This document shows positions 14,881 to 63,400 of a stretch of DNA of 64,000 nt, one piece after another. The position numbers were made by a program, and so were the translations under genes. Source of the stretch: Nemertoderma westbladi (Eukaryota; Animalia; Xenacoelomorpha); the NCBI GenBank assembly GCA_032718475.1, contig JAUCBJ010007900.1:113353-177352 (forward strand), in the 5' to 3' direction. The notes under the pieces are model-generated. The model did not search any database. It saw only the letters and a list, made by a program, of their open reading frames with translations, and was not told where the DNA came from. Positions within the stretch are counted from its first letter, which is position 1, and each line of letters starts with the position of its first letter.

Positions 14881-15310
14881 CTATACGTGCTCGCAGTAAA
14901 CCATTGCGGGGATTGCCGCGTCGCTTCCAGGTTCTTCCGGTAGACGTTGGATGGATATGGGTGTGTCTTAAGTACCAGTTTGGTTACCAGAAACATAACG
15001 AATTACTGCCACTGAATGGTAATCCGAATAGCAGCTACAGTATACTGTAGACCTACAACAGTATTAGTCCACGAAATACTGAATCTTATATAATAAAAAT
15101 ATTATATTATAATAATAATATTATAAAAATAAGTTGCCTTTATTTCAATTACATCCCTCTTCTATATTTGTTGGGATAAAGTCCAATCTTTATTCTTGAA
15201 AAGTCAGCTTTAAATCTGCAGGAAAGGCAACTTTGTGGACTAAATTTATATTATATTTCATTGTATTCATTATGTAAATATTCCAGTGGTTTGTGTTTAT
15301 TTTTGTGACA

Positions 15311-15472
15311 ATGCAGAGCAAATACGTGTCGGTTCCCAGTCACGCATCCACTCCGAGGTCATCCTCTTTCAATTGGAGAACCCCTGTCCCTTCGGTTACA
15401 AACTCAACTACAAGTCTCAAAGCCAAATGGGAAGAAGAGGAAAAGGAAGAAAGAGCAAAGAGAGCCAAAAAG
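15311..15472 (+). CDS. Host gene coding exon 1 (MQSKYVSVPSHASTPR...EEEEKEERAKRAKK)
   Basis: Acceptor TTCCAG at 15286 (frame also open from 15287), ATG at 15311, donor AAG|GTAATA, phase 0. Confidence 0.65.
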
Positions 15473-18400
15473 GTAATAACTAGAAGTACCGCTGGTTTTA
15501 CTACTGGGAGTGATATCTGATAGGAGCTGTTGGTGAAGTATCACTATCTCTTTCGTGCAAAGAATTTATGCTCTGACTCTTTCTCCCATAGGGCGCATTA
15601 AGAGCGAAAAGATAATTTTTAGCCTGATGATCTAGCATCAAATGAAGTCTGATTATTGAGCAATTCTATATGCCTGTTCCGCATATAAAAGAAAAAATAT
15701 TGAAAAAAGTTAATTTTTCCCTATATTTTTTTCTTCTGTCAATTATACTTTTTTTTAATTGCACGATATACAAATAGGGCCTACACAATTTCAATTATAA
15801 TTAATATAGTGATTAATGACAATCCGCCATAAGTTAATAAGCTGTACGGTATTTAATCATATTAATTAAATGTATTACATATATTTTCCAGAAAGCTGAC
15901 AGAATTTTCAAAGAATTGAAAATACTTAGGGATCTTTCGGAAGAGAAATATATTGAGACTGTTCGAAAACAAACCGAACAAAAGAGATTGTCTATAAAGT
16001 TAGTAACGCAATTACCGATTGTCTGCCCTACTTCAGTAGTTGAAGTTGTGTCACAGGAAGTAGGCCTGGCCTTTCTCACTAGTTTAGGGAAGTTAGTGTA
16101 ACAGAGTAGGCCTGGCCTTTCTCACTAGTTTAGGGAAGTTAGTGTTACAGGAAGTAGTCTGGCCTTTCTCAGTAGTTAGGGAAGTTACTGGTACAGGAAG
16201 TAGACCTGGCCTTTCTCACTAGTTTTGGGAAGTTAGTGTTACAGGAAGTAGTCTGGCCTTTCTCAGTAGTTAGGGAAGTTACTGGTACAGGAAGTAGACC
16301 TGGCCTTTCTCACTAGTTTTGGGAAGTTAGTGTTACAGAGTAGGCCTGGCCTTTCTCACTAGTTTAGGGAAGTTAGTGTTACAGAGTAGACCTGGCCTTT
16401 CTCACTAGTTATATAAGTTAGTGTTACAGGAACGGTAGGCCTGGCCTTTCTCAGTAGTTAGGGAAGTTATTGTTACAGGAAATCGACCTGGCCTTTCTCA
16501 GTAGTTAGGGAAGTTAGTGTTACAGGAACGGTAGACCTGGCCTTTCTCAGTAGTTAGGGAAATTAGTGTTTCAGGAAGTAGACCTGGCCTTTCTCAGTAG
16601 TTAGGGAAGTTACTGGTACAGGAAGTAGACCTGGCCTTTCTCACTAGTTATATAAGTTAGTGTTACGGGAAGTAGACCTGGCCTTTCTCAGTAGTTAGGG
16701 AAGTTAGTGTTACAGGAAGTAGTCTGGCCTTTCTCTGTAGTTAGGGAAGTTAGTGTTACAGGAACGGTAGACCTGGCCTTTCTCAGTAGTTAGGGAAGTT
16801 AGTGTTACAGGAAGTAGACATGGCCTTTCTCAGTATTTAGGGAAGTTAGTGTTACAGGAAGTAGTCTGGCCTTTCTCAGAAGTTAGGGAAGTTATTGTTA
16901 CAGGAAGTAGACCTGGCCTTTCTCAGTAGTTAGGGAAGTTAGTGTTACAGGAAGTAGTCTGGCCTTTCTCTGTAGTTAGGGAAGTTAGTGTTACAGGAAC
17001 GGTAGACCTGGCCTTTCTCAGTAGTTAGGGAAATTAGTGTTTCAGGAAGTAGACCTGCCTTTCTCAGTGGTTAGGGAAGCTATTGTTACAGGAAGTAGAC
17101 CTGGCCTTTCTCAGTAGTTAGGGAAGTTAGTGTTACAGGAAGTAGTCTGGTCTTTCTCAGTAGTTAGGGAAGTTACTGGTACAGGAAGTAGACCTGGCCT
17201 TTCTCAGTAGTTAGGGAAGTTAGTGTTACAGGAAGTAGTCTGGCCTTTCTCAGTAGTTAGGGAAGTTAGTGTTTTTAGGAAGTAGACCTGGCCTTTCTCA
17301 GTAGTTAGGGAAGTTAGTGTTACAGGAAGTAGTCTTGGCCTTTCTCAGTAGTTAGGGAAGTTAGTGTTACAGGAAGTAGTCTGGCCTTTCTCAGTAGTTA
17401 GGGAAGTTAGTGTTACAGGAAGTAGACCTGGCCATTCTCAGTAGTTAGGGAAGTTACTGGTACAGGAAGTAGACCTGGCCTTTCTCAGTAGTTAGGGAAG
17501 TTAGTGTTACAGGAAGTAGTCTGGCCTTTCTCAGTAGTTAGGGAAGTTAGTGTTTTTAGGAAGTAGACCTGGCCTTTCTCAGTAGTTAGGGAAGTTAGTG
17601 TTACAGGAAGTAGTTTGGCCTTTCTCAGTAGTTAGGGAAGTTAGTGTTACAGGAAGTAGTCTGGCCTTTCTCAGTAGTTAGGGAAGTTACTGTTACAGGA
17701 AGTAGACCTGGCCTTTCTCAGTAGTTAGGGAAGTTAGTGTTACAGGAAGTAGTCTGGCCTTTCTCAGTAGTTAGGGAAGTTAGTGTTTTTAGGAAGTAGA
17801 CCTGGCCTTTCTCACTAGTTAGGGAAGTTACTGGTACAGGAAGTAGACCTGGCCTTTCTCAGTAGTTAGGGAAGTTAGTGTTACAGGAAGTAGTCTGGCC
17901 TTTCTCAGTAGTTAGGGAAGTTAGTGTTTTTAGGAAGTAGACCTGGCCTTTCTCAGTAGTTAGGGAAGTTAGTGTTACAGGAAGTAGACCTGGCCTTTCT
18001 CAGTAGTTAGGGAAGTTAGTGTTACAGGAAGTAGTCTGGCCTTTCTCAGTAGTTAGGGAAGTTAGTGTTTGTAGGAAGTAGACCTGGCCTTTCTCAGTAG
18101 TTAGGGAAGTTACTGGTACAGGAAGTAGACCTGGCCTTTCTCAGTAGTTAGGGAAGTTAGTGTTACAGGAAGTAGTCTGGCCTTTCTCAGTAGTTAGGGA
18201 AGTTAGTGTTACAGGAAGTAGTCTGGCCTTTCTCAGTAGTTAGGGAAGTTAGTGTTAGAGGAAGTAGACCTGGCCTTTCTCAGTAGTTAGGGAAGTTACT
18301 GGTACAGGAAGTAGACCTGGCCTTTCTCAGTAGTTAGGGAAGTTAGTGTTACAGGAAGTAGTCTGGCCTTTCTCAGTAGTTAGGGAAGTTAGTGTTACAG

Positions 18401-21400
18401 GAAGTAGACCTGGCCTTTCTCAGTAGTTAGGGAAGTTACTGGTACAGGAAGTAGACCTGGCCTTTCTCAGTAGTTAGGGAAGTTAGTGTTACAGGAAGTA
18501 GTTTGGCCTTTCTCAGTAGTTAGGGAAGTTAGTGTTACAGGAAGTAGTTTGGCCTTTCTCAGTAGTTAGGGAAGTTAGTGTTACAGGAAGTAGTCTGGCC
18601 TTTCTCAGTAGTTAGGGAAGTTAGTGTTACAGGAAGTAGACCTGGCCTTTCTCAGTAGTTAGGGAAGTTAGTGTTACAGGAAGTAGTCTGGCCTTTCTCA
18701 GTAGTTAGGGAAGTTACTGGTAAGGGAAGTAGACCTGGCCTTTCTCAGTAGTTAGGGAAGTTAGTGTTACAGGAAGTAGTCTGGCCTTTCTCAGTAGTTA
18801 GGGAAGTTAGTGTTACAGGAAGTAGTCTGGCCTTTTTCAGTAGTTAGGGAAGTTAGTGTTACAGGAACGGTAGGCCTGGCCTTTCTCAGTAGTTAGGGAA
18901 GTTACTGGTACAGGAAGTAGACCTGGCCTTTCTCAGTAGTTAGGGAAGTTAGTGTTACAGGAAGTAGACCTGGCCTTTCTCAGTAGTTATATAAGTTAGT
19001 GTTGCAGGAAGTAGACCTGGCCTTTCTCAGTAGTTAGGGAAGTTATTGTTACAGGAAGTAGACCTGGCCTTTCTCACTACTGCCCTGGTCGCAGTAAATA
19101 GGCCCGGCATTCTTCTGGGTTAGACACAACTCCGAAGTGTATGGCAGAGGACGTCATTGTGTTTGCGCTTTTCAAAAATGAAAACAACAAACTAAACTTA
19201 AGAACCCAAATTACAAGTTAATTTCTGTCGTCGGGTTATTGTTTTCCGATATTAATTCAGCCTTGTTAACACATGCTATTTAACATCGTTCCACCACCCG
19301 CCATTCCCCGTTATTTATAATCATAATTTAAACGTCCGAGTTATTCGAGATAATAATTTTACAGGAGATCAGAGGAAAAACATACCCGAGAGCACTTAGC
19401 AACGGCAGAAAACAAAGATGGTCATAAACAACGACTTCGGCGGCATCCCTTAAAGAACAATCGGGATTACCTCGACAACATAGAACAATCTCACATGTAC
19501 AAGGTTGGCGTTAAATAAATATTCCAAATGAAGCTTGAAAAAAAGGAGTGCAGCTGTATGCTAGTGGGGGGCAATAAACACATTGTTGAACAATTCTAAC
19601 GGTATTAACTGTTCTAGTAAATTTCTCGTGCTTCTAGGTTTTTCAAACATAAGCGACATTGTGATTACTACAGTAATACTACAGTGCTATGGGACTTATT
19701 TTAGTATCGGAGCCACAATATTCTAATATCCAGCTTAGAATCTGATCGCTCAAAACGTTGTACCACTTTATCCCCAGTAAATTAATTTTTTCTATTTTTT
19801 TTTCTAATTTTTTTCTTTTGTATTTTTTTCTCTGTTATTTTTCTGTAGCCTATTAGATCTTTAGAAAAAAAAAACAGACAAAGCAATCAAGGTAGTCGTG
19901 AAACAAATAATTATTCTCCCCATTTTATTCTTCCTCTCATGATAGTTCAAAATTCACAACTACCATGGCAACGACCCAAAGCACACCAAAGTTTGCTAAT
20001 TTCATCTCGGACTACTATTTCTATAACTTAGCTAAAATTCCCATAGGACTAGAAAGTATTCCATGAAACTATGTCATTAAAGTGATGTACTTGGTAGGAG
20101 TGAAATATTTTATTCAGAAAAACTATAATGTATTAGCAAAGCGCAAAATACGAGTAAATAAATATAAGATTTAAAGATTGTCATGTCGAGCTACCATCAG
20201 CATGACGTGCGAGCGATCGGGTTGAAGTTTGATTACACCAAAATTCACCAGTACCTGTTTATACGAGACTGGTTAATTTTACTCAGTCAGTATATTGGGT
20301 CTACAATCAACGACGTCGACGCTAGTTGCATATACAAACGCCACCACAATGAGTGAGAAAACGAAAAATTAAGATATTCAATAAAATAAATTTATTATAA
20401 TATTAAATAGATTCCTCAGTTTAGGGCCTCCTTCTTTAAACATTTCATAGGTAAATCTTAGCTATTTGTCCGTATTCCATGAAAGTGACGTCACTAAACT
20501 CCGTAAGTCTGTAAGTGTGGAATATTATATTGAGTATAACTAGTATGTATTCACAAAGTGAAAAGAACGAGTAAATATTTGGTTTACATGTCCAATTGTG
20601 ATAATAAAATAAAATCCAAGCGATGGCGACAGTGAAGAAACTTCCCGAGAAAATATATAATTTTACTTTTATAGATTCCGCTTCACATCCCCGCACTTTT
20701 TCGATGTATATTTGGCTCAGCATGTAGATATAGGAGAAGCCCATGAACAGTTCGAATGAGATTTCGTGAACGAAATAGTTTTCGCTTGAACTCACGTATG
20801 TTAGAGTGATCAAACAACTCTGTTCCATTTCATAACTGACGAAGTTAACCCAACAAAGCGGTTTGTACCACCATCGGTTTATCCTGGGGGCGCATCTCAA
20901 CTGAGTTGCGAGATACGCGATTCCCAGTAGGATACGCGGCGAGCTGTGCAAGGCGATGCAGATACGGAATATATAGCGTTCTGGAGTTCCATCGCCCACG
21001 GCAGCGCTGAGAGAAGGGAGAAAATTCGAGACGTTACAATGAGTCATAGTTGTCTCTTCGAAGTGAATGGCTAGAGAGATAGCTACGCATGCCATTAGAC
21101 TGCCTAGAGGTAGCAATGGTAAAATGTAGAGGTAGGTGGCAGGAAACTTTACCATTGGGACGATATCTCTCAGATGTTGTTGGTTCGCAGTGTATTTTCG
21201 TTTGGAATCATCAATTTGTTCATGATTATCAAACTCATCAATGATTCCTGGGTCTCCGTTATTAGAGTGTATTTTCTTATTAGATCTGTTCATTTCCACT
21301 TTTCTTTGTAAATAAAAGGGAATTGGAAAAATCTATAAAGTATAATTCAAAGGCAACATCAGTGAAATAAAATCTGATTGAATGTTTAACAGAATATATT

Positions 21401-24400
21401 TTCTGTCAAACGAATACGCAAACAAACAATAACAACAATATTATATACTTTATAGTAGTTTGATGTTTGTTTGTTTATGTTTGTTTGTTATATTTAAAAT
21501 AAATCTGCCTTAGTTGGGGAACTCAAAACAAGAGTCTTACACGTTACACCCCATAAACTACAAAAAAATATAGAATCAGGACATTAAGCCCAAATTAGTA
21601 CTCAGGCCCTAGGCCAATCAAAGGACACAATAAAAAAAAACAACAAACAAAACAAATATAATAACATGCTCCACATACAGGTATGTATCGCAACCCTAAC
21701 CCTAAACCTAACCGCCATGCGCTAAATGATACCGGTAGTAAACTGCACGAAACCTAAGCCTATATTCTATAAGAAAATATATGACAATTTTGTCGCCGTT
21801 TTGGGGAAAATTAACAGTTTGACAAGAAACAATAAACGCTCCTCAAAAGTTCCGGCTAAAAAACACTGGCTATCATTAAGAAAACACTTTATTCTCACCT
21901 CGGCAAAAATTTGCGCAGTTTAAGATATGTTTTAGAGTGCGCAATTATTAAAGTAATATATAAATTAACCATCGCCTTTTCACGAATGTTACAACGAACG
22001 GCTGTACATTATTAAGTTATATTATACTATGCTATATTACTAATGCTATACTAATACTAATACTATGCTATACTACTAATGCTATATTATACAAGTTATA
22101 TTACAGTATATATTACCAATGTAGGTGTCTCAACAACTTCATAGACCTATCTCTGAGGTTTAAACTTAGGCTAAAGTTTTCAAGATCAATAACATGCTTA
22201 CTTATTCTGTTTACACTGTTATATACCATCATCATAGAATTGATTGTGTTGGTTGAAACAAGGCAGTCATTCGCAAGAGACATGATGTCATACTGTTAAT
22301 TCAACATGTATGAATGTATAGTATGGAGTGGAGGGAGACATTCAACAGCACACTGCACACTGCCTGGATGAGAGGTGATGTGGGGACTCAGAACAGTGAA
22401 TTCGCTAAGCGAATGTACTGCCTTGCCTACATAATGTATGTAGTTATTGACTATTATTATTCTGACACTGCTGCAATAAACAATACCTATTACCTTTGTT
22501 AACATCTGTTTTAGTCGCAATTAGTCGTAAAGTTATATGGTAGACGTTTCTAAGGTGGCTCTGCACGGCCACTATGAGTCATGTCTGGACTAAATCTATC
22601 TACTGTACGGATAAGATCAAGGAAATACATTTATTTATTGATCTTACTTACAACTTCCGTAAGGGAATGAGATTCTATTAAAAGAGGGAAACGATGGGGA
22701 AGCAGCTATTAAAACAAATCAGACAGCAAACTTGGTGCAAATCTATTCTGTTAAAAGGTATGAAGCCGCTAGGGGGGACTTGAAAGTTTTTTAATCTACC
22801 GCAAAAGCCGAATTGTCTAAATTTTAAAACCTTTTCTAATTTCCGTAAAGCGAAATCTTGCCAGATAAAGTATAGACTACAGGCTGCATCGATGAGGTAG
22901 CGCTGCACCCACCGTCTGCGCAATTCCCCAGTTCCCAGTATCGAAAGTTGTCTGTCAAAAGTTTAGAAATGTTTCAAATATAATTTGCTTGGGGCGTTTG
23001 AGCAGCAGGAGTGTCACCGTCTATCGTTTTGGCTGCCTAATGGTTTGGAGTTCCGGAGTTTTGCATCAAATAGTGGGTCTTTCCTTCATGAAATTAAAAC
23101 AAACTTTATATGTTGCGTTGTCTATAAAAAGTTTTATAAATGTATATTTGGCGGGCCTTTCGCTCGTCACTTGAGCGACGGAATACACCTCGCATAATAT
23201 AAGTGAATGTGTCTCGTTCTGCGTGAAGAACGTTCCACGAACGTGTTGTCTGTAAGCGATAGAATTATTCGCCGGGAATTGTTTTTTATTTTTTTTAAAT
23301 ATATATCTATGTAACGGGATGTAGTGATAAACATACAGTACTATTATTAAAAAACAAAAAAGAAACAGTCATTAATTAAACAATGGGGTCGATAAGCCAA
23401 CTATGCTGTATTCTGTAATAGCCAAGAATACAGGCCATGTAGCTAAGATTTAGGGCATATTAGCGCAGTCTGAAGGTTTCAATAGGCTATATATGGGTTA
23501 TTCAATCTTTAGGTCCGCGTAGCGAGACCTCTTACTAGTATTCACTCCGTTGTTGTTGTTATTTTCTCGTTAGGTTTTGGTATTAACGCTAGATACCGTC
23601 CCAGTGGCTCAGTTGGCAGAGCGTGGGACATGGAATCTCTAGTTACTGAGTTCAATCACCCATTACGGTGAATGTTTTTTTGTTGTAAGATTGGTAGTAA
23701 GTCATTCAAGGAGGAGACAGTTCATGCGTTAGTAGACGCGGACCTTTGCTGCCCGATATCGCGCTTGTTATTATTGATAGTTAGACAATGTTTGTATAAT
23801 TATTAGTCGAATTATACTTCTAGTAAACTATATTTTGTAATTTGTTATGTTTGTACTGTTTGTAATTTGTTATGTTTGTACTGTTTGTAATTTTTTATGT
23901 TTGTACTGTTTGTACTGTTTGTAATTTATTATGTTTGTACTGTTTGTAATTTATATGTTTGTACTGTTTGTAATTTATTATGTTTGTACTATATTTATAC
24001 TTTTAAAGCTTGTTGTTTGCAATGTAAATTTATTACAAAATACAAATTTTAGATTTTAGGAGACCAAAAGGAGCATCAGAAAACCGGGAAAATTAAAGAT
24101 AATGACGACCTGGATACATTCTGGGAACATTACGATAAACCGAGTTGCTACAATTCATATATACGGGAACTGCCGAGTGAAGAATTGTGTAGTAAAGTTG
24201 ATAAACACAGAGGTGGGAACATTTGATAAACACAGAAGGCAAGAACAGATTGATAAACCTAGAGATAGGAACAGATTGATAAACACAGAGGTAGGAACAC
24301 CAAAACAGGTTGATAAACACAGAGGTAGAAAGAAGGAATAGGTTGATAAACACGAGGTAGGAACATAGTAACAGATTGATAAACACAGAGGGAGGAACAT

Positions 24401-27400
24401 AGTAACAGATTGATAAACACAGAGGTAGGAAAGTAGTAACATATTGATAAACACAGAGGTATAAAGTAGGAATAGGTTGATAAACACAGATATATGAACA
24501 CCAAGTAGTAACAGATTGATAAACACAGAGGTAGGAACATAGTAACAGATTGATAAACACAGAGGTAGGAAAGTAGTAACAGATTTATAAACACAGAGGT
24601 AGGAACATAGTAACAGATTGATAAACACAGAGGTAGGAACATAGTAACAGATTGATAAACACAGAGGTAGGAAAGTAGTAACAGATTTATAAACACAGAG
24701 GTAGGAACATAGTAACAGATTGATAAACACAGAGGTAGGCAAGTAGTAACAGATTGATAAACACAGAGGTAGGAACATAGTAACAGATTGATAAACACAG
24801 AGGTAGGAAAGTAGTAACAGATTTATAAACACAGAGGTAGGAACATAGTAACAGATTGATAAACACAGAGGTAGGAACATAGTAACAGATTGATAAACAC
24901 AGAGGTAGGAAAGTAGTAACAGATTTATAAACACAGAGGTGGAACATAGTAACAGATTGATAAACACAGAGGTAGGCAAGTAGTAACAGATTGATAAACA
25001 CAGAGGTAGGAACATAGTAACAGATTGATAAACACAGAGGTAGGAACATAGTAACAGATTGATAAACACAGAGGTAGGAAAGTAGTAACATATTGATAAA
25101 CACAGAGGTAGGAACATAGTAACAGATTGATAAACACAGAGGTAGGAAAGTAGTAATATATTGATAAACACAGAGGTAGGAACATAGTAACAGATTGATA
25201 AACACAGAGGTAGGAAAGTAGTAACATATTGATAAACACAGAGGTAGGAACATAGTAACAGATTGATAAACACAGAGGTAGGAAAGTAGTAACATATTGA
25301 TAAACACAGAGGTAGGAACATTGTAACAGATTGATAAACACAGAGGTAGGCAAGTAGTAACAGATTGATAAACACAGAGGTAGGAACATAGTAACAGATT
25401 GATAAACACAGAGGTAGGAAAGTAGTAACATATTGATAAACACAGAGGTAGGAACATAGTAACAGATTGATAAACACAGAGGTAGGAAAGTAGTAACAGA
25501 TTTATAAACACAGAGGTAGGAACATAGTAACAGATTGATAAACACAGAGGTTGGAACATTGTAACAGATTGATAAACACAGAGGTAGGCAAGTAGTAACA
25601 GATTGATAAACACAGAGGTAGGAACATAGTAACAGATTGATAAACACAGAGGTAGGAACATAGTAACATATTGATAAACACAGAGGTAGGAACATATTGA
25701 TAAACACAGAGGTAGGAACATAGTAACAGATTGATAAACACAGAGGTAGGAAAGTAGTAACATATTGATAAACACAGAGGTAGGAACATATTTATAAACA
25801 CAGAGGTAGAAAGTAGGCATAGGTTGATAAACACAGAGGTAGGAACATAGTAACAGATTGATAAACACAGAGGTATGAAAGTAGTAACATATTGATAAAC
25901 ACAGAGGTAGGAACATAGTAACAGATTGATAAACACAGAGGTAGGAACATAGTAACAGATTGATAAACACAGAGGTAGGAAAGTAGTAACAGATTTATAA
26001 ACACAGAGGTAGGAACATAGTAACAGATTGATAAACACAGAGGTAGGCAAGTAGTAACAGATTGATAAACACAGAGGTAGGAACATAGTAACAGATTGAT
26101 AAACACAGAGGTAGGAAAGTAGTAACAGATTTATAAACACAGAGGTAGGAACATAGTAACAGATTGATAAACACAGAGGTAGGAACATAGTAACAGATTG
26201 ATAAACACAGAGGTAGGAAAGTAGTAACAGATTTATAAACACAGAGGTAGGAACATAGTAACAGATTGATAAACACAGAGGTAGGCAAGTAGTAACAGAT
26301 TGATAAACACAGAGGTAGGAACATAGTAACAGATTGATAAACATAGAGGTAGGAACATAGTAACAGATTGATAAACACAGAGGTAGGAAAGTAGTAACAT
26401 ATTGATAAACACAGAGGTAGGAACATAGTAACAGATTGATAAACACAGAGGTAGGAAAGTAGTAATATATTGATAAACACAGAGGTAGGAACATAGTAAC
26501 AGATTGATAAACACAGAGGTAGGAAAGTAGTAACATATTGATAAACACAGAGGTAGGAACATAGTAACAGATTGATAAACACAGAGGTAGGAAAGTAGTA
26601 ACATATTGATAAACACAGAGGTAGGAACATTGTAACAGATTGATAAACACAGAGGTAGGCAAGTAGTAACAGATTGATAAACACAGAGGTAGGAACATAG
26701 TAACAGATTGATAAACACAGAGGTAGGAAAGTAGTAACATATTGATAAACACAGAGGTAGGAACATAGTAACAGATTGATAAACACAGAGGTAGGAAAGT
26801 AGTAACAGATTTATAAACACAGAGGTAGGAACATAGTAACAGATTGATAAACACAGAGGTTGGAACATTGTAACAGATTGATAAACACAGAGGTAGGCAA
26901 GTAGTAACAGATTGATAAACACAGAGGTAGGAACATAGTAACAGATTGATAAACACAGAGGTAGGAACATAGTAACAGATTGATAAACACAGAGGTAGGA
27001 AAGTAGTAACATATTGATAAACACAGAGGTAGGAACATAGTAACAGATTGATAAACACAGAGGTAGGAAAGTAGTAACATATTGATAAACACAGAGGTAG
27101 GAACATAGTAACAGATTGATAAACAAAGAGGTAGGAAAGTAGTAACATATTGATAAACACAGAGGTAGGAACATATTTATAAACACAGAGGTAGAAAGTA
27201 GGCATAGGTTGATAAACTCAGAGGTAGGAACATAGTAACAGATTGATAAACACAGAGGTAGGAAAGTAGTAACATATTGATAAACACAGAGGTAGGAACA
27301 TAGTAACAGATTGATAAACACAGAGGTAGGAAAGTAGTAACATATTGATAAGCACAGAGGTAGGAAAGTAGTAACATATTGATAAACACAGAGGTAGGAA

Positions 27401-30400
27401 CATAGTAACAGATTGATAAACACAGAGGTAGGAAAGTAGTAACATATTGATAAACACAGAGGTAGGAACATATTGATAAACACAGAGGTAGGAACATATT
27501 TATAAACACAGAGGTAGAAAGTAGGCATAGGTTGATAAACACAGAGGTAGGAACATAGTAACAGATTGATAAACACAGAGGTAGGAACATAGTAACAGAT
27601 TGATAAACACAGAGGTAGGAAAGTAGTAACATATTGATAAACACAGAGGTAGGAACATAGTAACAGATTGATAAACACAGAGGTAGGAAAGTAGTAACAT
27701 ATTGATAAACACAGAGGTAGGAACATATTTATAAACACAGAGGTAGGAACATATTTATAAACAAAGAGGTAGAAAGTAGGCATAGGTTGATAAACACAGA
27801 GGTAGGAACATAGTAACAGATTGATAAACACAGAGGTAGGAACATAGTAACAGATTGATAAACACAGAGGTAGGAAAGTAGTAACATATTGATAAACACA
27901 GAGGTAGGAACATATTTATAAACACAGAGGTAGAAAGTAGGCATAGGTTGATAAACACAGAGGTAGGAACATAGTAACAGATTGATAAACACAGAGGTAG
28001 GAACATAGTAACAGATTGATAAACACAGAGGTAGGAACATAGTAACAGATTGATAAACACAGAGGTAGGAAAGTAGTAACATATTGATAAACACAGAGGT
28101 AGGAACATAGTAACAGATTGATAAACACAGAGGTAGGAAAGTAGTAACATATTGATAAACACAGAGGTAGGAACATATTTATAAACGCAGAGGTAGGAAC
28201 ATAGTAACAGATTGATAAACACAGAGGTAGGAAAGTAGTAACATATTGATAAACACAGAGGTAGGAACATATTTATAAACACAGAGGTAGGAACATGGTA
28301 ACAGATTGATAAACACAGAGGTAGGAAAGTAGTAACATATTGATAAACACAGAGGTAGGAACATATTGATAAACACAGAGGTAGGAACATAGTAACAGAT
28401 TGATAAACACAGAGGTAGGAAAGTAGTAACATATTGATAAACACAGAGGTAGGAACATATTTATAAACACAGAGGTAGAAAGTAGGCATAGGTTGATAAA
28501 CACAGAGGTAGGAACATAGTAACAGATTGATAAACACAGAGGTATGAAAGTAGTAACATATTGATAAACACAGAGGTAGGAACATAGTAACAGATTGATA
28601 AACACAGAGGTAGGAAAGTAGTAACATATTGATAAACACAGAGGTAGGAACATAGTAACAGATTGATAAACACAGAGGTAGGAAAGTAGTAACATATTGA
28701 TAAACACAGAGGTAGGAACATAGTAACAGATTGATAAACACAGAGGTAGGAAAGTAGTAACATATTGATAAATACAGAGGTAGGAACATATTTATAAACA
28801 CAGAGGTAGGAACATATTTATAAACAAAGAGGTAGAAAGTAGGCATAGGTTGATAAACACAGAGGTAGGAACATAGTAACAGATTGATAAACACAGAGGT
28901 AGGAACATAGTAACAGATTGATAAACACAGAGGTAGGAAAGTAGTAACATATTGATAAACACAGAGGTAGGAACATATTTATAAACACAGAGGTAGAAAG
29001 TAGGCATAGGTTGATAAACACAGAGGTAGGAACATAGTAACAGATTGATAAACACAGAGGTAGGAACATAGTAACAGATTGATAAACACAGAGGTAGGAA
29101 CATAGTAACAGATTGATAAACACAGAGGTAGGAACATAGTAACAGATTGATAAACACAGAGGTAGGAAAGTAGTAACATATTGATAAACACAGAGGTAGG
29201 AACATAGTAACAGATTGATAAACACAGAGGTAGGAAAGTAGTAACATATTGATAAACACAGAGGTAGGAACATATTTATAAACGCAGAGGTAGGAACATA
29301 GTAACAGATTGATAAACACAGAGGTAGGAAAGTAGTAACATATTGATAAACACAGAGGTAGGAACATATTTATAAACACAGAGGTAGGAACATGGTAACA
29401 GATTGATAAACACAGAGGTAGGAAAGTAGTAACATATTGATAAACACAGAGGTAGGAACATATTGATAAACACAGAGGTAGGAACATAGTAACAGATTGA
29501 TAAACACAGAGGTAGGAAAGTAGTAACATATTGATAAACACAGAGGTAGGAACATATTTATAAACACAGAGGTAGAAAGTAGGCATAGGTTGATAAACAC
29601 AGAGGTAGGAACATAGTAACAGATTGATAAACACAGAGGTATGAAAGTAGTAACATATTGATAAACACAGAGGTAGGAACATAGTAACAGATTGATAAAC
29701 ACAGAGGTAGGAAAGTAGTAACATATTGATAAACACAGAGGTAGGAACATAGTAACAGATTGATAAACACAGAGGTAGGAAAGTAGTAACATATTGATAA
29801 ACACAGAGGTAGGAACATAGTAACAGATTGATAAACACAGAGGTAGGAAAGTAGTAACATATTGATAAATACAGAGGTAGGAACATATTTATAAACACAG
29901 AGGTAGGAACATATTTATAAACAAAGAGGTAGAAAGTAGGCATAGGTTGATAAACACAGAGGTAGGAACATAGTAACAGATTGATAAACACAGAGGTAGG
30001 AACATAGTAACAGATTGATAAACACAGAGGTAGGAAAGTAGTAACATATTGATAAACACAGAGGTAGGAACATATTTATAAACACAGAGGTAGAAAGTAG
30101 GCATAGGTTGATAAACACAGAGGTAGGAACATAGTAACAGATTGATAAACACAGAGGTAGGAACATAGTAACAGATTGATAAACACAGAGGTAGGAACAT
30201 AGTAACAGATTGATAAACACAGAGGTAGGAACATAGTAACAGATTGATAAACACAGAGGTAGGAAAGTAGTAACATATTGATAAACACAGAGGTAGGAAC
30301 ATAGTAACAGATTGATAAACACAGAGGTAGGAAAGTAGTAACATATTGATAAACACAGAGGTAGGAACATAGTAACAGATTGATAAACACAGAGGTAGGA

Positions 30401-51400: not shown

Positions 51401-54400
51401 TTTATAAACACAGAGGTAGAAAGTAGGCATAGGTTGATAAACACAGAGGTAGGAACATAGTAACAGATTGATAAACACAGAGGTAGGAACATAGTAACAG
51501 ATTGATAAACACAGAGGTAGGAACATAGTAACAGATTGATAAACACAGAGGTAGGAAAGTAGTAACATATTGATAAACACAGAGGTAGGAACATAGTAAC
51601 AGATTGATAAACACAGAGGTAGGAAAGTAGTAACATATTGATAAACACAGAGGTAGGAACATATTTATAAACGCAGAGGTGGGAACATAGTAACAGATTG
51701 ATAAACACAGAGGTAGGAAAGTAGTAACATATTGATAAACACAGAGGTAGGAACATATTTATAAACACAGAGGTAGGAACATGGTAACAGATTGATAAAC
51801 ACAGAGGTAGGAAAGTAGTAACATATTGATAAACACAGAGGTAGGAACATATTGATAAACACAGAGGTAGGAACATAGTAACAGATTGATAAACACAGAG
51901 GTAGGAACGTAGTAACATATTGATAAACACAGAGGTAGGAACATATTTATAAACACAGAGGTAGAAAGTAGGCATAGGTTGATAAACACAGAGGTAGGAA
52001 CATAGTAACAGATTGATAAACACAGAGGTATGAAAGTAGTAACATATTGATAAACACAGAGGTAGGAACATAGTAACAGATTGATAAACACAGAGGTAGG
52101 AAAGTAGTAACATATTGATAAACACAGAGGTAGGAACATAGTAACAGATTGATAAACACAGAGGTAGGAAAGTAGTAACATATTGATAAACACAGAGGTA
52201 GGAACATAGTAACAGATTGATAAACACAGAGGTAGGAAAGTAGTAACATATTGATAAACACAGAGGTAGGAACATATTTATAAACACAGAGGTAGAAAGT
52301 AGGCTTAGGTTGATAAACACAGAGGTAGGAACATAGTAACAGATTGATAAACACAGAGGTAGGAACATAGTAACAGATTGATAAACACAGAGGTAGGAAA
52401 GTAGTAACATATTGATAAACACAGAGGTAGGAACATATTTATAAACAATAGGTTGATAAACACAGAGGTTGGAACATAGTAACAGATTGATAAACACAGA
52501 GGTAGGAAAGTAGTAACATATTGATACTACTACTACTACTACTACTAGGATCGGCATGCTGCATTGCAGCTGCATTTTTAAGAATGCTGTGCCGGCTTGT
52601 CAACAAAATTGCACCGCCACAACTCCCTATCACCCATGACATTTGCTAGATCATCCGCATCTTTAAGGCCAGTGTCCTTTAAGATGCGTCTCAAGAAAGT
52701 CATGGGCTGTCCACCATGCTTATTCACTCCATGAGGCTGCCAAAGTACAAGATTATGCACTGGCTGATCCTCACGGCGAAAGCAATGTCCTGCAAAGCGG
52801 AGGCGATTTTGTTCTAGTGTCAAGCTTGGGGGAACCAATGAGACACCTCCAATGTTATATAGTGTCTGGTTGGAGATGTGTGCATTGTACTTTACACAAT
52901 GAACCCGGCGTAGCATTCTTGTGAATGTGCCATCCAGAGATTTGGTGTCCTCAGCAGTTAGAGCCCAGCATGGACTCCCGTAGAGGAGTACTGGAACTAC
53001 TGCTGCTCTAAATAATCGGACCTTAAGTTTCCGATTAATTCTCGGTGACTTCCAAATCCTGGAAAGCCTATTCAAGGCTGCCCATGCCTTTCCCTTATGT
53101 ATTCGAAGGTCCTCACCTGACTTCCGGATCCATGATCCCAGGTAACAGAAGTCGTCCACATGCTCAAGCATACCATCCTTTGAGCTTATGCTCATCCGAT
53201 CAGAGACTTGCTGAGGACTTTCAAAGTTAACTGTCAGAATTTTGGTCTTTCTGGAGTTAATAAAAAGACCAACACTAGAAGCAGCATGTTCTAATGAGCT
53301 GAGGAGCCGTTGGGCTCCCTCTAATGATTCTGAGAGTACTCCTAAGTCATCAGCAAAGTCTAGATCAGTTAGGTACTTGGCAGGATTTCCTCGACTTCTG
53401 GAGCCAGTAGGTGGAGTTATCATCACCCCATCATCATTATAATGATCTAAGGACATGCGTAGAACATAGTCAACCACAATAATGAACAAGAATGGTGCAA
53501 GTGTGTCTCCTTGGAGGACGCCCCATAACACTTCAAATGGTTCTGTGTCACCGTCAACAGTAGACACAAGACATATTGACTATATACCAACATATCAACA
53601 TATTGATAAACACAGAGGTAGGAACATATTTATAAACACAGAGGTAGAAAGTAGGCATAGGTTGATAAACACAGAGGTAGAAAGTAGGAATAGGTTGATA
53701 AACACAGAGGTAGGAACATAGTAACAGATTGATAAACACAGAGGTAGGAAAGTAGTAACATATTGATAAACACAGAGGTAGGAACATATTTATAAACACA
53801 GAGGTAGAAAGTAGGCCTAGGTTGATAAACACAGAGGTAGAAAGTAGGAATAGGTTGATAAACACAGAGGTAAAAGTAGGAATAGGTTGATAACCACAGA
53901 GGTAGGAACATATTGATAAACACCGAGGTAGGAAGAGATTGATAAACATAGAGGTAGGAACATATTGATAAACACCGAGGTAGGAAGAGATTGATAAACA
54001 TAGAGGTAGGAACATATTGATAAACGCATATATAGGAACATGCAGTAGTAACAGGTTGATAAACACCGAGGTAGGAACATATTGATAAACACAGAAATAG
54101 GAACATACAGTAGTAACAGGTTGATAAACACAGAGGTAGGAACATATTGATAAACACCGAGGTAGGAAGAGATTGATAAACATAGAGGTAGGAACATATT
54201 GATAAACACCGAGGTAGGAAGAGATTGATAAACACAGAGATAGGAACATATTGATAAACATAGAGGTAGGAACATATTGATAAACACGGAGATAGGAACA
54301 TATTGATAAACACAGAGGTAGGAAGAGATTGATAAACATAGAGGTAGGAACATATTGATAAACACAGAGATAGGAACATATTGATAAACATAGAGGTAGG

Positions 54401-57400
54401 AACATATTGATAAACACTGAGATAGGAACATATTGATAAACACAGAGGTAGGAAGAGATTGATAAACATAGAGGTAGGAACATATTGATAAACACAGAGG
54501 TAGGAACATAGTAACAGATTGATAAACACAGAGGTAGGAAAGTAGTAACATATTGATAAACACAGAGGTAGGAACATATTATTGATAAACACCGAGGTAG
54601 GAAGAGATTGATAAACATAGAGGTAGGAACATATTGATAAACACATATATAGGAACATATTGATAAACACAGAGGTAGGAAGAGATTGATAAACATAGAG
54701 GTAGGAACATATTGATAAACACAGAGGTAGGAACATAGTAACAGATTGATAAACACAGAGGTAGGAAAGTAGTAACAGGTTGATAAACGCCGAGGTAGGA
54801 ACATATTATTGATAAACACCGAGGTAGGAAGAGATTGATAAACATAGAGGTAGGAACATATTGATAAACACATATATAGGAACATGCAGTAGTAACAGGT
54901 TGATAAACACCGAGGTAGGAACATATTGATAAACACAGAAATAGGAACATACAGTTGTAACAGGTTGATAAACACAGAGGTAGGAACATATTGATAAACA
55001 CAGATATAGGAACATAATGATAAACACGGAGATAGGAACATACAGTTGTAACAGGTTGATAAACACAGAGGTAGGAACAGGTTGATAAACACAGAGGTAG
55101 AAAGTAGGAACATATTGATAAACACAGAGGTAGAAAGTTGGATCAGATTGATGAACGCAGAGGTAGGAACATTTGATAAACTACTACTACTACGATCGGC
55201 ATGCTGCATTGCAGCTGCATTGTATATATTACATATATATTAAGAATGCTGTGCCGGCTTTTCGACAAAATCGCGCCGCCACAATTCCCTATCACCCATG
55301 ACATTTGCTAGTTCATCCGCATCTTCAAGGCCAGTGTCCTTTAAGATGCGTCTCATGTCATAGGCTGTCCACCATGCTTATTCGCTCCATGATGCCGCCA
55401 AAGCACAAGATTATGCACTGGCGGGTCCTCACGGCTAAAGCAATGTCCTGCAAACCGGAGGAGGTTCCGTTCAAGTGTCAAGCTAGGGAAGACTAATGGA
55501 ACACCTCCAATGTTGTATAGAGTCTGATTGGAGTTGAGGAGATGTGTGCATTGTACTTGACTCAATGAACCAGGCGCAGCATTATTGTGAATGTGCCATC
55601 AGGAGATTTGGTATCCTATGCAGTAAGAGCCCAGCATGGACTCTCATATAAGAGTACTGGTTCTGCTACTGCCATAAATTATCGAACCTAAAGGTTCCGT
55701 TTTATTCTATGGGAGTTCCAAATCCTGGACAGACTATTTAACGCTACCCATGCCTTCACCTTACGTATCCGAAGGTCTTCACCTGACTTTCTGATCCATG
55801 AGCCCAAGTAGCAGAAGTAGTTTGATAAACACAAAAGGTAGTAAGTAGGAACAGGTTGATAAACACAGTATTAGGAACAGATTGATGAACACAAAGGTAG
55901 GAAACATATTATAAACACGATTCTGATCAATAATATAATATACTTCGCAGAGTACCACACCACCACCGTATTATTTATCTTAGATTTAGTTCTATTTCAT
56001 CTTGAAATATGTCTAGGTTACGGAAGTAGTTCGGAATTTGATCGAAGCGAAGGTATAGGAACAATAGAGGAGAGAGATGAAGGACCAGCGACAATATCTA
56101 AGGATGAAAAGATTACATCCAAGTAAGAAGCGGATATGTGTTAATTTACAATAAATATAATGGAATGGAACATTTAAATGAAACCAAAATGAGCTAGATT
56201 AATCAGAAATTATATTAAGATCATAATATTATTATTACATATAATATCACTTTATAAGGCTCTGATATCTCCAGTCATTTTTCAAAAATAATTATTATTC
56301 TTAAATTGTTACTTTTTCGGGCGAATATTCCCAAAAATCGGGATAAATAGGAGTATTTTTATTCTTTTTTTCATTGGATTTAAGTAACCCATAGGATTCA
56401 TTGATTTTACTTATTCTCAGCGAAAGAAGTAATTACTATAATAAATGTATAATAAACCTTGAAGTTAAACTTAGAGAATATTAACAGAATAAGTAAATGG
56501 AGTTTATCAGCTGGTAGTTACTACAGTATACGATATACAATAAATATTTGCAAATTAGGCTGTAAATGTATATAGAACAGGGCGTTTAAAGTAGGATTCC
56601 AAATATCCCTGTCCTCTCTGCCAAATGACCCCACGTGTTGGGAGGATTGGCATGTTTGACCTCTGTCGACTAAATCGATCCTAACGTTTTAACAACTGTT
56701 TAAAATCAATACAAACTATGACTGAAAGATAGCCCAATAAATTCTGGACAAAATGAGAACTCATATTAAACAAATGAGTAAACAGATTGGAAGATATGAG
56801 CGTATTAGACAAAAACATGCCGAAAGTCCCTACCCTCCCCTACAGTAATTTTAATCGCAGTAACTACAGTATGGAAGCAATATAGTAAAATTCTGCAGTT
56901 CAAATTATCTTGTAACACTTTCTTTGTATCTTTTATTAATAATGAATTAGCACTAAAAAGTACCAATTATTTAAGAGTAAAATTTCATATTACATAGGAA
57001 AAAACGTGGAACATTTTTTTTCAATATTTCCCCGCCTCGACACTTTATTAACCTTACTTATTAACCTTGGCGTTATTAACAGTGGAGAAAAGGTCTAAAT
57101 TTTTCACCAAGTAATAAGTAATTAATTTTTCTTCTGCGTTTGTTTTGGGCCATGTTGTTCTTCTGATTCTGAAAAAGAGAGTAAAACCTCCCAAAATGAG
57201 TTACAACGGAAACGGTACTTTAGTGCTGTACTACTGTATATCAAACCAGCACATAACTATTACTTTCATTTTTTGGTAAACTGTACAAAATTTTTTTATT
57301 GAAATTTACCATGCTTATACGGCGTATACGGAATCTCTGTAATTTTCTTCTCCTCTTTATTGTAATTTTAACTACAGTATAACTATTAATCACTAATACT

Positions 57401-60400
57401 GTACATTACTAGACCATTGCTATTAAAGACCGTCAGGCCCTAAGTTGTCCAGTTCGCTCGACCTAGTACAGTAGTAGTAGTACAGGCCCTAAGAAGGACA
57501 GTTTAACAGAATTATAGCGGCACATATACTTGACCTCTCAACGAGTAAGCCCCAACGGTCTTCTAATTAAATGTAATTTGATGATATCACGAGAACCGAT
57601 CATATAATTTTTTTTAATGTAATTGTACAGTTTGGTGAACTGCACCCAACGATTTATCACAATTCATATTTCGGATGACAGGTAGCGGTGAAATCCGACC
57701 GGGTGTTCCATAATGATTGCCAACCCCCCCCCCCCCCCCCCCCCTGGCCAGCCAAAACTGCCAGACATGTACTTTAGTGTAATATATCCTTCGAAAGATA
57801 ATTTAATTCTGAGCTTACACGCAAAAATTGAGGGTCCAATACAAAAGTATAAAAATTTCATAGGCTATTCTTTAAACCTATCTTATTTTTCGTTATTTTT
57901 TATTTAATCACAATTAAAACAAATATAATTTATCCAGCGTTAGTCATCAGCTTTACAGCCATGATTCCCCTTTGCAGCACGGGGAGCTCCTCGATAGTGG
58001 CAAAGGATGTTGGCCCTTAAAAGGGCCGTTTTGGTTTGAGTTCAGTTTGATTATGCCACAGAATCACGACCCTCTCTAAAAGTAACATCTCTGATCCTGT
58101 CAACCATACGTTTTTCTTCACAATCATCGAAGATTGCACTGGAACTTGTCATTTTAATTACTTCTGTTAGGCCTAATTCAGTAAAATTACCAAAGACACA
58201 TTAATACCGGTAACTGAATACTGTAATATATTGCAATACAGCAAAAGTCAAGCAGTAATAACTGTTTAAACAGGGTTGCAAATCTGATGACTAACCCTGG
58301 ATAAATTATATTTTTTTAAAATTGTGATTAAATCACAAATATTGGAAAGAAAGATTGGTTTAAAGAATTGCCTATAAAATTTTCATACTTTTGTATTGGA
58401 CCCTAAATTTTTGCATGTAAGCTCAGAATTAAATTCTCTTTCAAATGATATATTACACTAAAGTACATGTCTGGCAGTTTTGGCTGGCCATGGGGGGGGG
58501 CAATCATTATAGAACACACGGTAGTTAGTTAAATATTGTTTCTGCTAAATTATTGTTTTTTTCTATGTGTTACTTGTTTCCCAGGTAACTTAGTTTTATA
58601 GTCAATAAAACAAATACATATATGTATATATGCTTACAACAGTACTACTGTATATACACATATAGATATACTGTATGTAATAATTTTTAGTATTCAACGG
58701 AGATGGAGTAGAGTGGCCTGGTTGACGCCGCGTAGACGATCGCTGCGTTCATTCACGTTCAATAAGAAACGAGTGACTTACGATGCGGCCAAGTTCCCGC
58801 AGAAACCCTACCCAGAGTTAACAGTGTACCGGGAGGAAATATCCGACCCAGTGCCAGAACCGAAACAGGTAAAAATATCCGACCCAGTGCAGTGCCAGAA
58901 CTGAAACAGGTAAAAATATCCGACCCAGTGCCAGAACCTCAACAGGTAAACATATCCGACCCAGTACCAGAACCGAAACAGGTAAAAATATCCGACCCAG
59001 TACCAGAACCGAAACAAGCAAAAATATCCAACCCAGTACCAGAACCGAAACAGGTCAAAATATCCGACCCAGTACTAGAACCGAAACAGGTGAAAATATC
59101 CGACCCAGTACCAGAACCGAAACAGGTGAAAATATCCGACCCAGTACCAGAACCGAAACAGGTAAAAATATCCGACCCAGTACCAGAACCGAAACAGGTA
59201 AAAATATCCGACCCAGTACCAGAACCGAAACAGGTAAAAATATCCGACCCAGTATCAGAACCGAAACAGGTAAAAATATCCGAGCCAGTACCAGAACCGA
59301 AACAGGTAAAAATATCCGACCCAGTACCAGAACCGAAACAGGTAAAAATATCCGACCCAGTACCAGAACTGAAACAGGTAAAAATATCCGACCCAGTACC
59401 AGAACCGAAATAGATAAAAATATCCGACCCAGTACCAGAACCAAAACAGGTAAAAATATCCGACAAATTTCCGACCCAGTACCAGAACCGAAACAGGTAA
59501 AAATATCCGACCCAGTACCAGAACGGAAACAGGTAAAAATATCCGACCCAGTACCAGAACCGAAACAGGTAAAAATATCCGACCCAGTACCAGAACCGAA
59601 ACAGGTAAAAATATCCGACCCAGTACCAGAACCGAAACAGGTAAAAATATCCAACCCAGTACCAGAACTGAAACAGGTAAAAATATCCGACCCAGTACCA
59701 GAACTGAAACAGGTAAAAATATCCGACCCAGGACCAGAACCGAAACAGGTAAAAATATCCGACCCAGTACCAGAACCGAAACAGGTAAAAATATCCGACC
59801 CAGTACCAGAACCGAAACAGGTAAAAATATCCGACCCAGTACCAGAACTGAAACAGGTAAAAATATCCGACCCAGTACCAGAACTGAAACAGGTAAAAAT
59901 ATCCGACCCAGTACCAGAACTGAAACAGGTAAAAATATCCGACCCAGTACCAGAACTGAAACAGGTAAAAATATCCGACCCAGTACCAGAACCGAAACAG
60001 GTAAAAATATCCGACCCAGTACCAGAACCGAAACAGGTAAAAATATCCGACCCAGTACCAGAACTGAAACAGGTAAAAATATCCGACCCAGTACCAGAAC
60101 CGAAATAGATAAAAATATCCGACCCAGTACCAGAACCGAAATAGGTAAAAATATCCGACCCAGTACCAGAACCGAAACAGGTAAAAATATCCGACCCAGT
60201 ACCAGAACTGAAACAGGTAAAAATATCCGACCCAGTACCAGAACTGAAACAGGTAAAAATATCCGACCCAGTACCAGAACGGAAACAGGTAAAAATATCC
60301 GACCCAGTACCAGAACCGAAACAGGTAAAAATATCCGACCCAGTACCAGAACCGAAACAGGTAAAAATATCCGACCCAGTACCAGAACCGAAACAGGTAA

Positions 60401-63400
60401 AAATATCCGACCCAGTACCAGAACTGAAACAGGTAAAAATATCCGACCCAGTACCAGAACTGAAACAGGTAAAAATATCCGACCCAGTACCAGAACTGAA
60501 ACAGGTAAAAATATCCGACCCAGTACCAGAACTGAAACAGGTAAAAATATCCGACCCAGTACCAGAAGCGAAACAGGTAAAAATATCCGACCCAGTACCA
60601 TAACCGAAACAGGTAAAAATATCCGACCCAGGACCAGAACCGAAACAGGTAAAAATATCCGACCCAGTACCAGAACCGAAACAGGTAAAAATATCCGACC
60701 CAGTACCAGAACCGAAACAGGTAAAAATATCCGACCCAGTACCAGAACTGAAACAGGTAAAAATATCCGACCCAGTACCAGAACTGAAACAGGTAAAAAT
60801 ATCCGACCCAGTACCAGAACTGAAACAGGTAAAAATATCCGACCCAGTACCAGAACTGAAACAGGTAAAAATATCCGACCCAGTACCAGAACCGAAACAG
60901 GTAAAAATATCCGACCCAGTACCAGAACCGAAACAGGTAAAAATATCCGACCCAGTACCAGAACTGAAACAGGTAAAAATATCCGACCCAGTACCAGAAC
61001 CGAAATAGATAAAAATATCCGACCCAGTACCAGAACCGAAATAGGTAAAAATATCCGACCCAGTACCAGAACCGAAACAGGTAAAAATATCCGACCCAGT
61101 ACCAGAACTGAAACAGGTAAAAATATCCGACCCAGTACCAGAACTGAAACAGGTAAAAATATCCGACCCAGTACCAGAACTGAAACAGGTAAAAATATCC
61201 GACCCAGTACCAGAACTGAAACGGGTGAAAATATCCGACCCAGTACCAGAACCGAAACAGGTAAAAATATCCGACCCAGTACCAGAACCGAAACAGGTAA
61301 AAATATCCGACCCAGTACCAGAACTGAAGCAGGTAAAAATATCTGACCCAGTACCAGAACTGAAACAGGTAAAAATATCCGACCCAGTACCAGAACTGAA
61401 ACAGGTAAAAATATCCGACCCAGTACCAGAACTGAAACAGGTAAAAATATCCGACCCAGGCCCAGAACCGAAACAGGTAAAAATATCCGACCCAGTACCA
61501 GAACCTAAACAGGTAAAAATATCCGACCCAGTACCAGAAGCGAAACAGGTAAAAATATCCGACCCAGTACCAGAACCGAAACAGGTAAAAATATCCGACC
61601 CAGTACCAGAACTGAAACAGGTAAAAATATCCGACCCAGTACCAGAACCGAAACAGGTAAAAATATCCGACCCAGTACCAGAACCGAAACAGGTAAAAAT
61701 ATCCGACCCAGTACCAGAACCGAAACAGGTAAAAATATCCGACCCAGTACCAGAACCGAAACAGGTAAAAATATCCGACCCAGTACCAGAACCGAAACAG
61801 GTAAAAATATCCGACCCAGTACCAGAACCGAAACAGGTAAAAATATCCGACCCAGTACCAGAACCGAAACAGGTAAAAATATCCGACCCAGTACCAGAAC
61901 CGAAACAGGTAAAAATATCCGACCCAGTACCAGAACTGAAACAGGTAAAAATATCCGACCCAGTACCAGAACCGAAACAGGTAAAAATATCCGACCCAGT
62001 ACCAGAACCGAAACAGGTAAAAATATCCGACCCAGTACCAGAACCGAAACAGGTAAAAATATCCGACCCAGTACCAGAACCGAAACAGGTAAAAATATCC
62101 GACCCAGTACCAGAACCGAAACAGGTAAAAATATCCGACCCAGTACCAGAACCGAAACAGGTAAAAATATCCGACCCAGTACCAGAACCGAAACAGGTAA
62201 AAATATCCGACCCAGTACCAGAACCGAAACAGGTAAAAATATCCGACCCAGTACCAGAACCGAAACAGGTAAAAATATCCGACCCAGTACCAGAACCGAA
62301 ACAGGTAAAAATATCCGACCCAGTACCCGAACCGAAACAGGTATAAATATCCGACCCATTACCAGAACCCAAACAGGTGAAAATATCCGACCCATTTCCA
62401 GAACCTAAACGGGTGAAAATATCCGACCCATTTCCAGAACCCAAACAGGTGAAAATATCCGACCCATTTCCAGAACCTAAACGGGTGAAAATATCCGACC
62501 CATTTCCAGAACCTAAACGGGTGAAAATATCCGACCCATTTCCAGAATCTAAACGGGTGAAAATATCCGACCCATTACCAGAACGAAAACTAACATAATA
62601 TGTTTTAATAGTTTTTTTCATAATATTCCAGAGATGGCGAATTTTGAATGTTTTGGGGCACTTAAGTCCATATATGGTCTATATATTAATAATAAGTTCG
62701 AAACTGTAATAGGATCCACGTTTTCCATAAGTTTTAAGCTGGTATCCTGGATTCTGGAGTGGATGTTTAGTAGAGGAGCCGCGATCTCGATTGGGACTGC
62801 AGTTTAATAATGTTTTGTCTAGGTGAGGAGGCAACGAAATCGCGAAAGGCGAGAAGAACGAAGAACGCGTAGATTGGAACATTTACGAACAATGTACGAT
62901 CATTCGCACCTCAACGAGGTCAACGCCAATAGATTAATAGACAAACGAACGCGGGAATTTGAATTCGTCAGAGGAGGTGAAATATTAATTATTTACTTAC
63001 TTAATTACAGTTACATACAGACCTTACATGGGAGGCCTGTAAATAAATCAATACTTAATGAATTCTCACTACGCGTCATTTTAAACAGGAGAATATAAAT
63101 TATATTGTTCACCTTACAGGTAAAAATACATTTTCTCCATCTCCAACGAAGAGTAAAATACCTAGACAACGCGTGGAGGGAGAACCTATAACAGAACCTT
63201 TAGCTTTAGAGGCCGGAGGGGGAATAATCTTACCAGCTGTAGATGTGAGACACACCCCTCTGAGTTACAGAGAAGGGTGGGTTAGAATTCCCGCAAGCGA
63301 GGTCGTTATCGCTAAGTCACCTCTACCACCGCGACGCGCTAATCATGGGCGTAAAATCGTAGGACAAACTGCGCACGTTGACACACGTGGGACCACTACA

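Follow-up and report, generated by a model that had tools for sequence, protein, structure and literature searches.

The DNA analysed here is a 64,000-nucleotide stretch of the Nemertoderma westbladi genome (assembly GCA_032718475.1, contig JAUCBJ010007900.1, forward strand, positions 113,353-177,352), hereafter the window, in which positions are counted from the first letter. It holds a predicted plus-strand gene of eight exons in which introns 2, 4 and 6 are filled by three tandem arrays; those of introns 4 and 6 reiterate the end of the preceding predicted exon together with its 5' splice site (donor), and that of intron 2 does so less clearly. Joined across seven GT-AG introns of consistent phase, the exons give a reading frame of 551 codons that is free of internal stops. 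Exon 1 (15311-15472) begins with the ATG at 15311 and ends at the donor AAG/GTAATA (the slash marks the exon end); exon 2 (15892-15998) ends at a weak donor, AAA/GTTAGT at 15999; exon 3 (19365-19503) is followed just past its donor by an in-frame stop, with AATAAA at 19573, and could be a last exon. Exon 4 (24053-24212) ends at GAG/GTGGGA, and the first array unit begins with its last 15 nucleotides. Exon 5 (56017-56122) is followed by exon 6 (58691-58868), which ends at CAG/GTAAAA and whose last 32 nucleotides lie within the first unit of the next array, by exon 7 (62823-62976) and by the last exon, exon 8 (63120-63769; 216 codons, with AATAAA at 63936). Use of the array junctions as exon ends, and their membership of a single gene, are predictions of this model.

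Tandem Repeats Finder, applied to the 64-kb window, recovers the repeats of introns 2, 4 and 6 along with several other arrays, and the bulk of the cores or units in introns 4 and 6 carry the GT, as an initial annotation of this DNA had reported. Also as stated there, the three arrays are unrelated in sequence, their pairwise scores being reached by 33, 297 and 168 of 300 shuffles, and the core motifs of all three are confined to their own arrays within the window. The proposal that each array derives from its own exon end and donor stands clearly for introns 4 and 6, judged against the predicted model, and less firmly for intron 2. The first units carry 15 (intron 4), 32 (intron 6) and 2-3 (intron 2) exonic nucleotides, so that the position of the donor within the unit varies from array to array. 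Of the donors ahead of the in-frame stop, the one inside the first unit scores highest (for exon 4, 4.6 versus -2.7 for the one alternative scored), and no other good donor remnant was found near the intron 4 or the intron 6 array. With the arrays collapsed, the gene shrinks from 48,459 to 9,859 bp, and introns 2, 4 and 6 become ordinary introns of 331, 127 and 231 nucleotides, each with its acceptor outside the array. These predicted acceptors lie in unique sequence 110-290 nucleotides beyond the arrays; thus existing introns would have been lengthened and no new intron made.

The intron 4 array (24198-55918, plus strand) has units of 26, 33 and 34 bp and 925 cores, of which 893 have an intact GT and 870 read AG/GT; GATAAACACAGAGGT occurs 718 times. 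Its first core begins at 24198, 15 nucleotides within predicted exon 4, which bears out the description of these monomers as the last bases of exon 4 plus its own donor. The 5' edge consists of decayed units of 25-27 bp. It gives way to a homogeneous block of 28 kb (24520-52526; 857 cores, mainly in 34-bp units), and beyond the first of two insertions the array is older and again mostly of 26-bp units. Mean mismatch per core is 0.25 in the block versus 1.73 and 3.33 at the edges. The founder unit was therefore probably of 26 bp, and the block appears to have expanded recently. The array contains exact internal duplications as long as 2,312 bp, a sign of growth in large steps or, in part, of assembly error. 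Read in the exon 4 frame, the 34-bp unit contains stops, and the motif had no match among metagenome contigs. Two reverse-transcriptase elements, both on the minus strand, interrupt the array and are younger than it: one at 52527-53596, with a 12-bp target duplication and 98% identity to a copy at 6614-7654, and an older copy of the same family at 55178-55820 (83% identity). All three copies of this family in the window (5800-7654, 52527-53596 and 55178-55820), which has a TAG-repeat tail, lie in or against tandem arrays; two of them interrupt the intron 4 unit at almost identical points, a possible sign of target preference or of tolerance. Units 2 and 3 of the array (24223-24275) lack the GT, one of them offering a GC-type donor (AAG/GCAAGA), so that the nearest GT copy is 78 nucleotides from the first donor, which may reflect decay of the edge or selection against near competitors.

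The intron 6 array (58837-62596, plus strand; Tandem Repeats Finder places its end at 62588) has 105 units, including one 11-bp partial unit, and retains the GT in 98 of 103 full-length units. Each 36-bp unit combines 32 exonic with 4 intronic nucleotides, and the first unit is the last 32 nucleotides of exon 6 followed by the first 4 of the intron, in agreement with the initial annotation, whose 35-letter pattern is matched exactly by 43 units. The bulk of the array is non-coding. A 5-bp duplication in the second unit (58890-58903) brings in a stop at about 58901 and closes the frame shortly ahead of the second donor; had this duplication not occurred, each later donor would have added a further 12 residues in frame. 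The last units are distinct from the others, and the differences fall mostly at third positions.

In intron 2 the array (16042-19076, plus strand) consists of about 65 copies of a 46/47-bp unit, with AAGTTAGT found 47 times in 15990-19080. Its recognisable part begins 43 nucleotides past the donor. Between the two lies a decayed, in-register 'zeroth' unit (15996-16041, plus strand) that holds 2-3 exon bases and the predicted donor. The score of this zeroth unit was reached by 2 of 21,407 non-array 46-mers and by none of 5000 shuffles, and the AAGTTAGT of its donor half does not occur in 21.7 kb of non-array plus strand. When the donor half alone is shuffled the score is reached in 463 of 5000 cases, so the donor half adds little, and the wording 'weaker match' that had been used for intron 2 is apt. 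Support for an array spanning the junction is weaker here than in introns 4 and 6.

The exons were compared by composition with stop-free background windows in a leave-one-out test. Exons 1, 3, 6, 7 and 8 exceed every such window (0 of 947 for exon 1, 0 of 738 for exon 6), for exon 5 a single window of 3216 does as well, and exons 2 and 4 are weakest (27 of 3023 and 10 of 1002), in a test that is not independent of the model, the exons having been chosen partly for their protein-like look. A naive exon scan with splice-site weights, examined for the top 30 of 58 loci, recovers the donors of exons 1 and 6, exons 3 and 7, and the acceptor of exon 8. No homologue of exon 8 was accepted: a word search gave 0 of 1193 candidates, a metagenome scan 0 of 451 stretches and the Atlas a best score of 0.86, and phmmer against 1.84 billion representatives returned two matches, both to repetitive open reading frames (ORFs) and judged spurious. 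Homologue searches gave 0 of 3 for exon 4 and 0 of 4 for exon 6, such searches being weak for short single exons. Pfam gave nothing above the cut-off with the eight exon peptides, and there was no match in tRNA and Rfam searches. Within predicted exon 8, positions 63395-63470 (plus strand) contain three short DGRHTP-like coding repeats.

Inside predicted intron 3, on the minus strand, lies an intact, intronless ORF of 282 amino acids (20445-21293) of the Frag1/DRAM/Sfk1 family (Pfam E 5.9e-37), which scores 0.97 in the Atlas to PGAP2-like clusters and shows that this is an animal-type gene region. By exact look-up neither this ORF nor that of exon 8 is present in the protein collection. The PGAP2-like ORF may be a nested gene or a retrocopy, or it may indicate that the host model really joins two genes, and its antisense position in intron 3 thus allows a second reading of the model (see below). 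The arrays of introns 4 and 6 would lie in the same gene under either reading, while the intron 2 array may lie in a different one.

The copied donors score like the first ones (4.7 versus 4.6 in intron 4 and 3.5 versus 3.5 in intron 6). In introns 4 and 6 they are conserved no more than the remainder of the unit: distinct variants number 8 over the 6 positions of the donor core versus 12 over the remaining 13 in intron 4 (one-sided p 0.85), and 7 over 6 versus 20 over 19 in intron 6 (one-sided p 0.69), in a test of low power, since homogenisation of the arrays leaves their variants non-independent. All later donors that were checked put a stop into the extended exon (three of three in intron 4, two of two in intron 6).

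The initial annotation knew of no described class of arrays built from the host's own donors, but an undescribed class is not supported. Tandem duplications of exon/intron boundaries are known as 'mirages' from lancelet globin and Adh3 genes, where splicing is normal, boundary copies are divergent, the core is homogenised and the mechanism of origin is called unclear (PMC3087553, cited here from excerpts). The lancelet genes compared are Adh3, the globins BflGb6 and BflGb9, troponin C and PGBD5 (PMC3087553 and excerpts of PMC3902484), the last of which carries two different junction repeats in one gene (PMC3902484). In human genes, the excerpted text of PMC1557585 lists five minisatellites whose first unit spans the junction and which reiterate the donor: F7 (intron 7; 37 bp, 5-9 copies), 6-16 (intron 2; 25 pseudo-sites), CBS (intron 13; 31 bp, 15-21 copies; notation from excerpts of PMC2630376), LMNB2 (100 bp, 10-15 copies) and PDGF (intron 4; 81 bp, 16-18 copies). 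Measured donor use is of the first donor only in F7, LMNB2 and PDGF, and in F7 the most upstream donor is used even against stronger copies (PMC1557585).

The N. westbladi arrays fit the mirage class in the features examined, use of the junctions being a prediction of the model. Like the lancelet mirages, whose excerpted descriptions give units of 10-160 bp (46/47, 26/33/34 and 36 bp here), they duplicate a boundary and have a homogenised core with divergent edge copies; as in PGBD5, unrelated arrays stand at separate junctions of one predicted gene. They differ in copy number (2-7 in the lancelet excerpts versus 65, 105 and about 925) and in that all three lie on the donor side; for lancelets, normal splicing and length polymorphism are reported. 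As in the human arrays, the first unit crosses the junction and the donor is reiterated within the intron: the 4 exonic nucleotides of F7 resemble intron 2, and the 24 exonic plus 7 intronic nucleotides of CBS resemble intron 6. In the human examples excerpted each gene has a single array, of no more than about 26 copies, and in both respects the N. westbladi arrays differ. The only unusual thing is array size: about 925 copies over 32 kb in intron 4, an array on roughly the 30-kb scale with about 35 times the copy number of the largest example compared (26 donors, among the excerpted cases). The giant introns of Drosophila Y genes hold simple-sequence satellites that are not known to be related to the host exon ends. 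These fertility genes (PMC6508621 and PMC11207136) are alike in that satellite makes up most of the transcription unit, as it does 80% of the 48.5-kb predicted gene here, and unlike in that their introns are megabase-sized. Finally, a model of intron gain by tandem duplication of an AG/GT proto-splice site (PMC3265369 and PMC4974935; the model is described in PMC3087553) shares with our arrays the AG/GT units of exon origin. It needs an acceptor supplied by the last repeat copy, whereas the predicted acceptors here are in unique sequence, and intron gain was rejected on this ground.

We regard it as probable, with considerable room for doubt, that the arrays are local duplications across donors that were tolerated through use of the first donor and then expanded neutrally. 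Each would have begun as a short local tandem duplication across the exon/donor junction, tolerated since splicing would still use the first donor. The arrays would then have grown by neutral repeat turnover, with copies drifting without function, and transcripts leaving at later donors would presumably be lost through premature stops. Use of the first donor is what F7, LMNB2 and the lancelet genes lead us to infer here. Why births should cluster at junctions is the weakest step. As a guess, duplications may seed more often in or next to GC-richer exons, and among exon-derived duplications those that cross a donor may be the ones that leave the protein unchanged.

Several observations weigh against this explanation. 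Of the four arrays in the gene with units of at least 25 bp, three span a predicted donor, so that three of the seven predicted donors carry an array; the fourth is purely intronic (23834-24023; 25 bp), ends about 30 nucleotides before the exon 4 acceptor and touches no junction. Under uniform placement the probability of at least three of four arrays on a donor is 3-5e-5, and of at least two 2-3e-3, both values being post hoc, from one selected window and uncorrected for its choice. Three of four is far above uniform chance, and tolerance alone is insufficient to account for it. In two of the human genes, 6-16 and CBS, donor use extends beyond the first donor to the nearest copies (PMC1557585). 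Intron 2 has an alternative donor inside the array, at 16092, that is in frame and would add 31 codons without a stop, and its donor core shows a little less variation than the remainder of the unit (1 variant over 6 positions versus 10 over 16, p 0.15); the low power of the conservation test belongs here too. The naive scan missed exons 2, 4 and 5 among its top 30 of 58 loci. An open alternative is that the model combines two genes, exons 1-3 ending at the stop past exon 3 (AATAAA at 19573) and exons 4-8 standing apart; for the latter, one of eight candidates for a first exon of their own begins with the ATG at 21666 and ends at 21680, where a strong phase-0 donor (21681) follows.

The placement of the arrays also speaks for a different origin, in which splice donors are mutational hot spots where repeats are born and grow through a process coupled to transcription or splicing, such as polymerase pausing, or R-loops or break repair at the 5' splice site. 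The sense strands are purine-rich (0.70, 0.61 and 0.54 for the arrays versus 0.48-0.51) and two arrays have a GC skew of +0.33 to +0.39, which is compatible with R-loop-assisted growth, and the origin of mirages is itself called unclear in the excerpts of PMC3087553. The skew of the intron 6 array is negative (-0.23), however, the place of the donor in the unit differs among the three arrays, lancelet mirages duplicate acceptors too (PMC3087553), no junction is established for at least five other arrays in the window, and the placement probabilities carry the limits given above. We consider hot-spot donors unlikely as an explanation. Equally doubtful, in our estimate, is the combination of hot-spot donors with growth to tens of kilobases in this lineage, under which the gene would splice past some 900 donors as strong as its own. 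Less likely still is that the gene model is partly wrong, or that the units come from a satellite, or from repeats carried by a transposon, that existed beforehand and had its edge exonised or misread as an exon end. The model was built from, and is supported by, the sequence of this window only; exons 2 and 4 are weakest in composition, the window is rich in unrelated arrays, and the antisense PGAP2-like gene and the candidate first exon allow the model to be split. On the other side stand its 551 codons with seven phase-consistent introns and no internal stop, the five of eight exons that exceed every background window, the lack of another good donor remnant near the intron 4 or 6 array, and a 36-bp unit that reads, in frame, like a natural exon 6 end.

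The initial annotation had also suggested that the arrays are kept by selection as platforms for U1 snRNP, protecting against premature polyadenylation, acting as decoys or delaying splicing. The GT is indeed kept in most units of introns 4 and 6 and the copied donors are as strong as the first, but GT retention follows from the low overall divergence, and donor positions vary like the rest of the unit in these two introns. The three arrays hold one AATAAA in about 36 kb versus 11 in the 4.3 kb of array-free intron 3, so there is little within them to protect, though the variant TATAAA occurs 128 times in the intron 4 block; the collapsed introns, moreover, are short. A role of this kind is very improbable. 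The same can be said with still more assurance of two functional alternatives, that the 36-bp array is a coding repeat of 12 residues or that the AG/GT units are recursive-splicing (ratchet) sites. Read in the exon frame, the 36-bp unit does comprise 12 sense codons, and variation among the last units falls mostly at third positions, but against a coding array stand its 5-bp and 11-bp indels (the former giving the stop near 58901) and the 34 codon variants, of which 3 are stops and 11 are synonymous, versus 23% expected. Ratchet sites are defined by a pyrimidine-rich acceptor directly before AG/GT. Most units do read AG/GT, but the sequence before it in introns 4 and 6 is purine-rich: the 15 nucleotides before the AG contain 3 T in the intron 4 unit versus 4-8 at predicted acceptors, and none in the intron 6 unit (in a counting window misplaced by 2 nucleotides), and the 34-bp unit has its stops in the exon frame. 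Donors no more conserved than their surroundings, scarce AATAAA and purines before the AG thus lead us to rate both U1 selection and recursive splicing low.

Since the class is already known, the finding opens no new category. If the gene is expressed, the intron 4 array would put first-donor selection to a strong natural test. No published study asking genome-wide whether repeats are enriched at donors came up, in a search that covered subscription journals thinly. If repeats prove to arise at donors far above matched sequence genome-wide, this would bear on how mirages originate and would tie splicing to the birth of satellites and the growth of introns.

Other repeats in the window include two arrays with donor-like motifs. 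A 22-bp array at 14552-14879 (minus strand) reads GGAG/GTGAAAA right after a GC- and CpG-rich stretch (14880-14985), with AT in place of GT in its first two units; it may represent a fourth donor array, one placed at the initial exon of a divergent gene, although no such gene was identified. A 22/27-bp array at 11880-13698 (plus strand) holds a consensus-like donor, GAG/GTGAGT, in its second unit near 11925; GAGGTGAG is kept in only 9 of about 58 units, and no upstream exon was identified. The 11.9-13.7 kb region of this array is flanked by a dispersed pair of 210-bp repeats (11048-11258 and 13758-13973; 81%). In intron 5, a 233-bp inverted pair (57735-57966 and 58268-58500) is 89% identical. 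Arrays of 143 bp and 52 bp at 1455-1950, 5570-5720 and 7655-8494 have a common CCCGGGCGCGGGGTCAC motif and look transposon-borne, and the first of them ends in CTAGT, which may recall a Helitron-like end.

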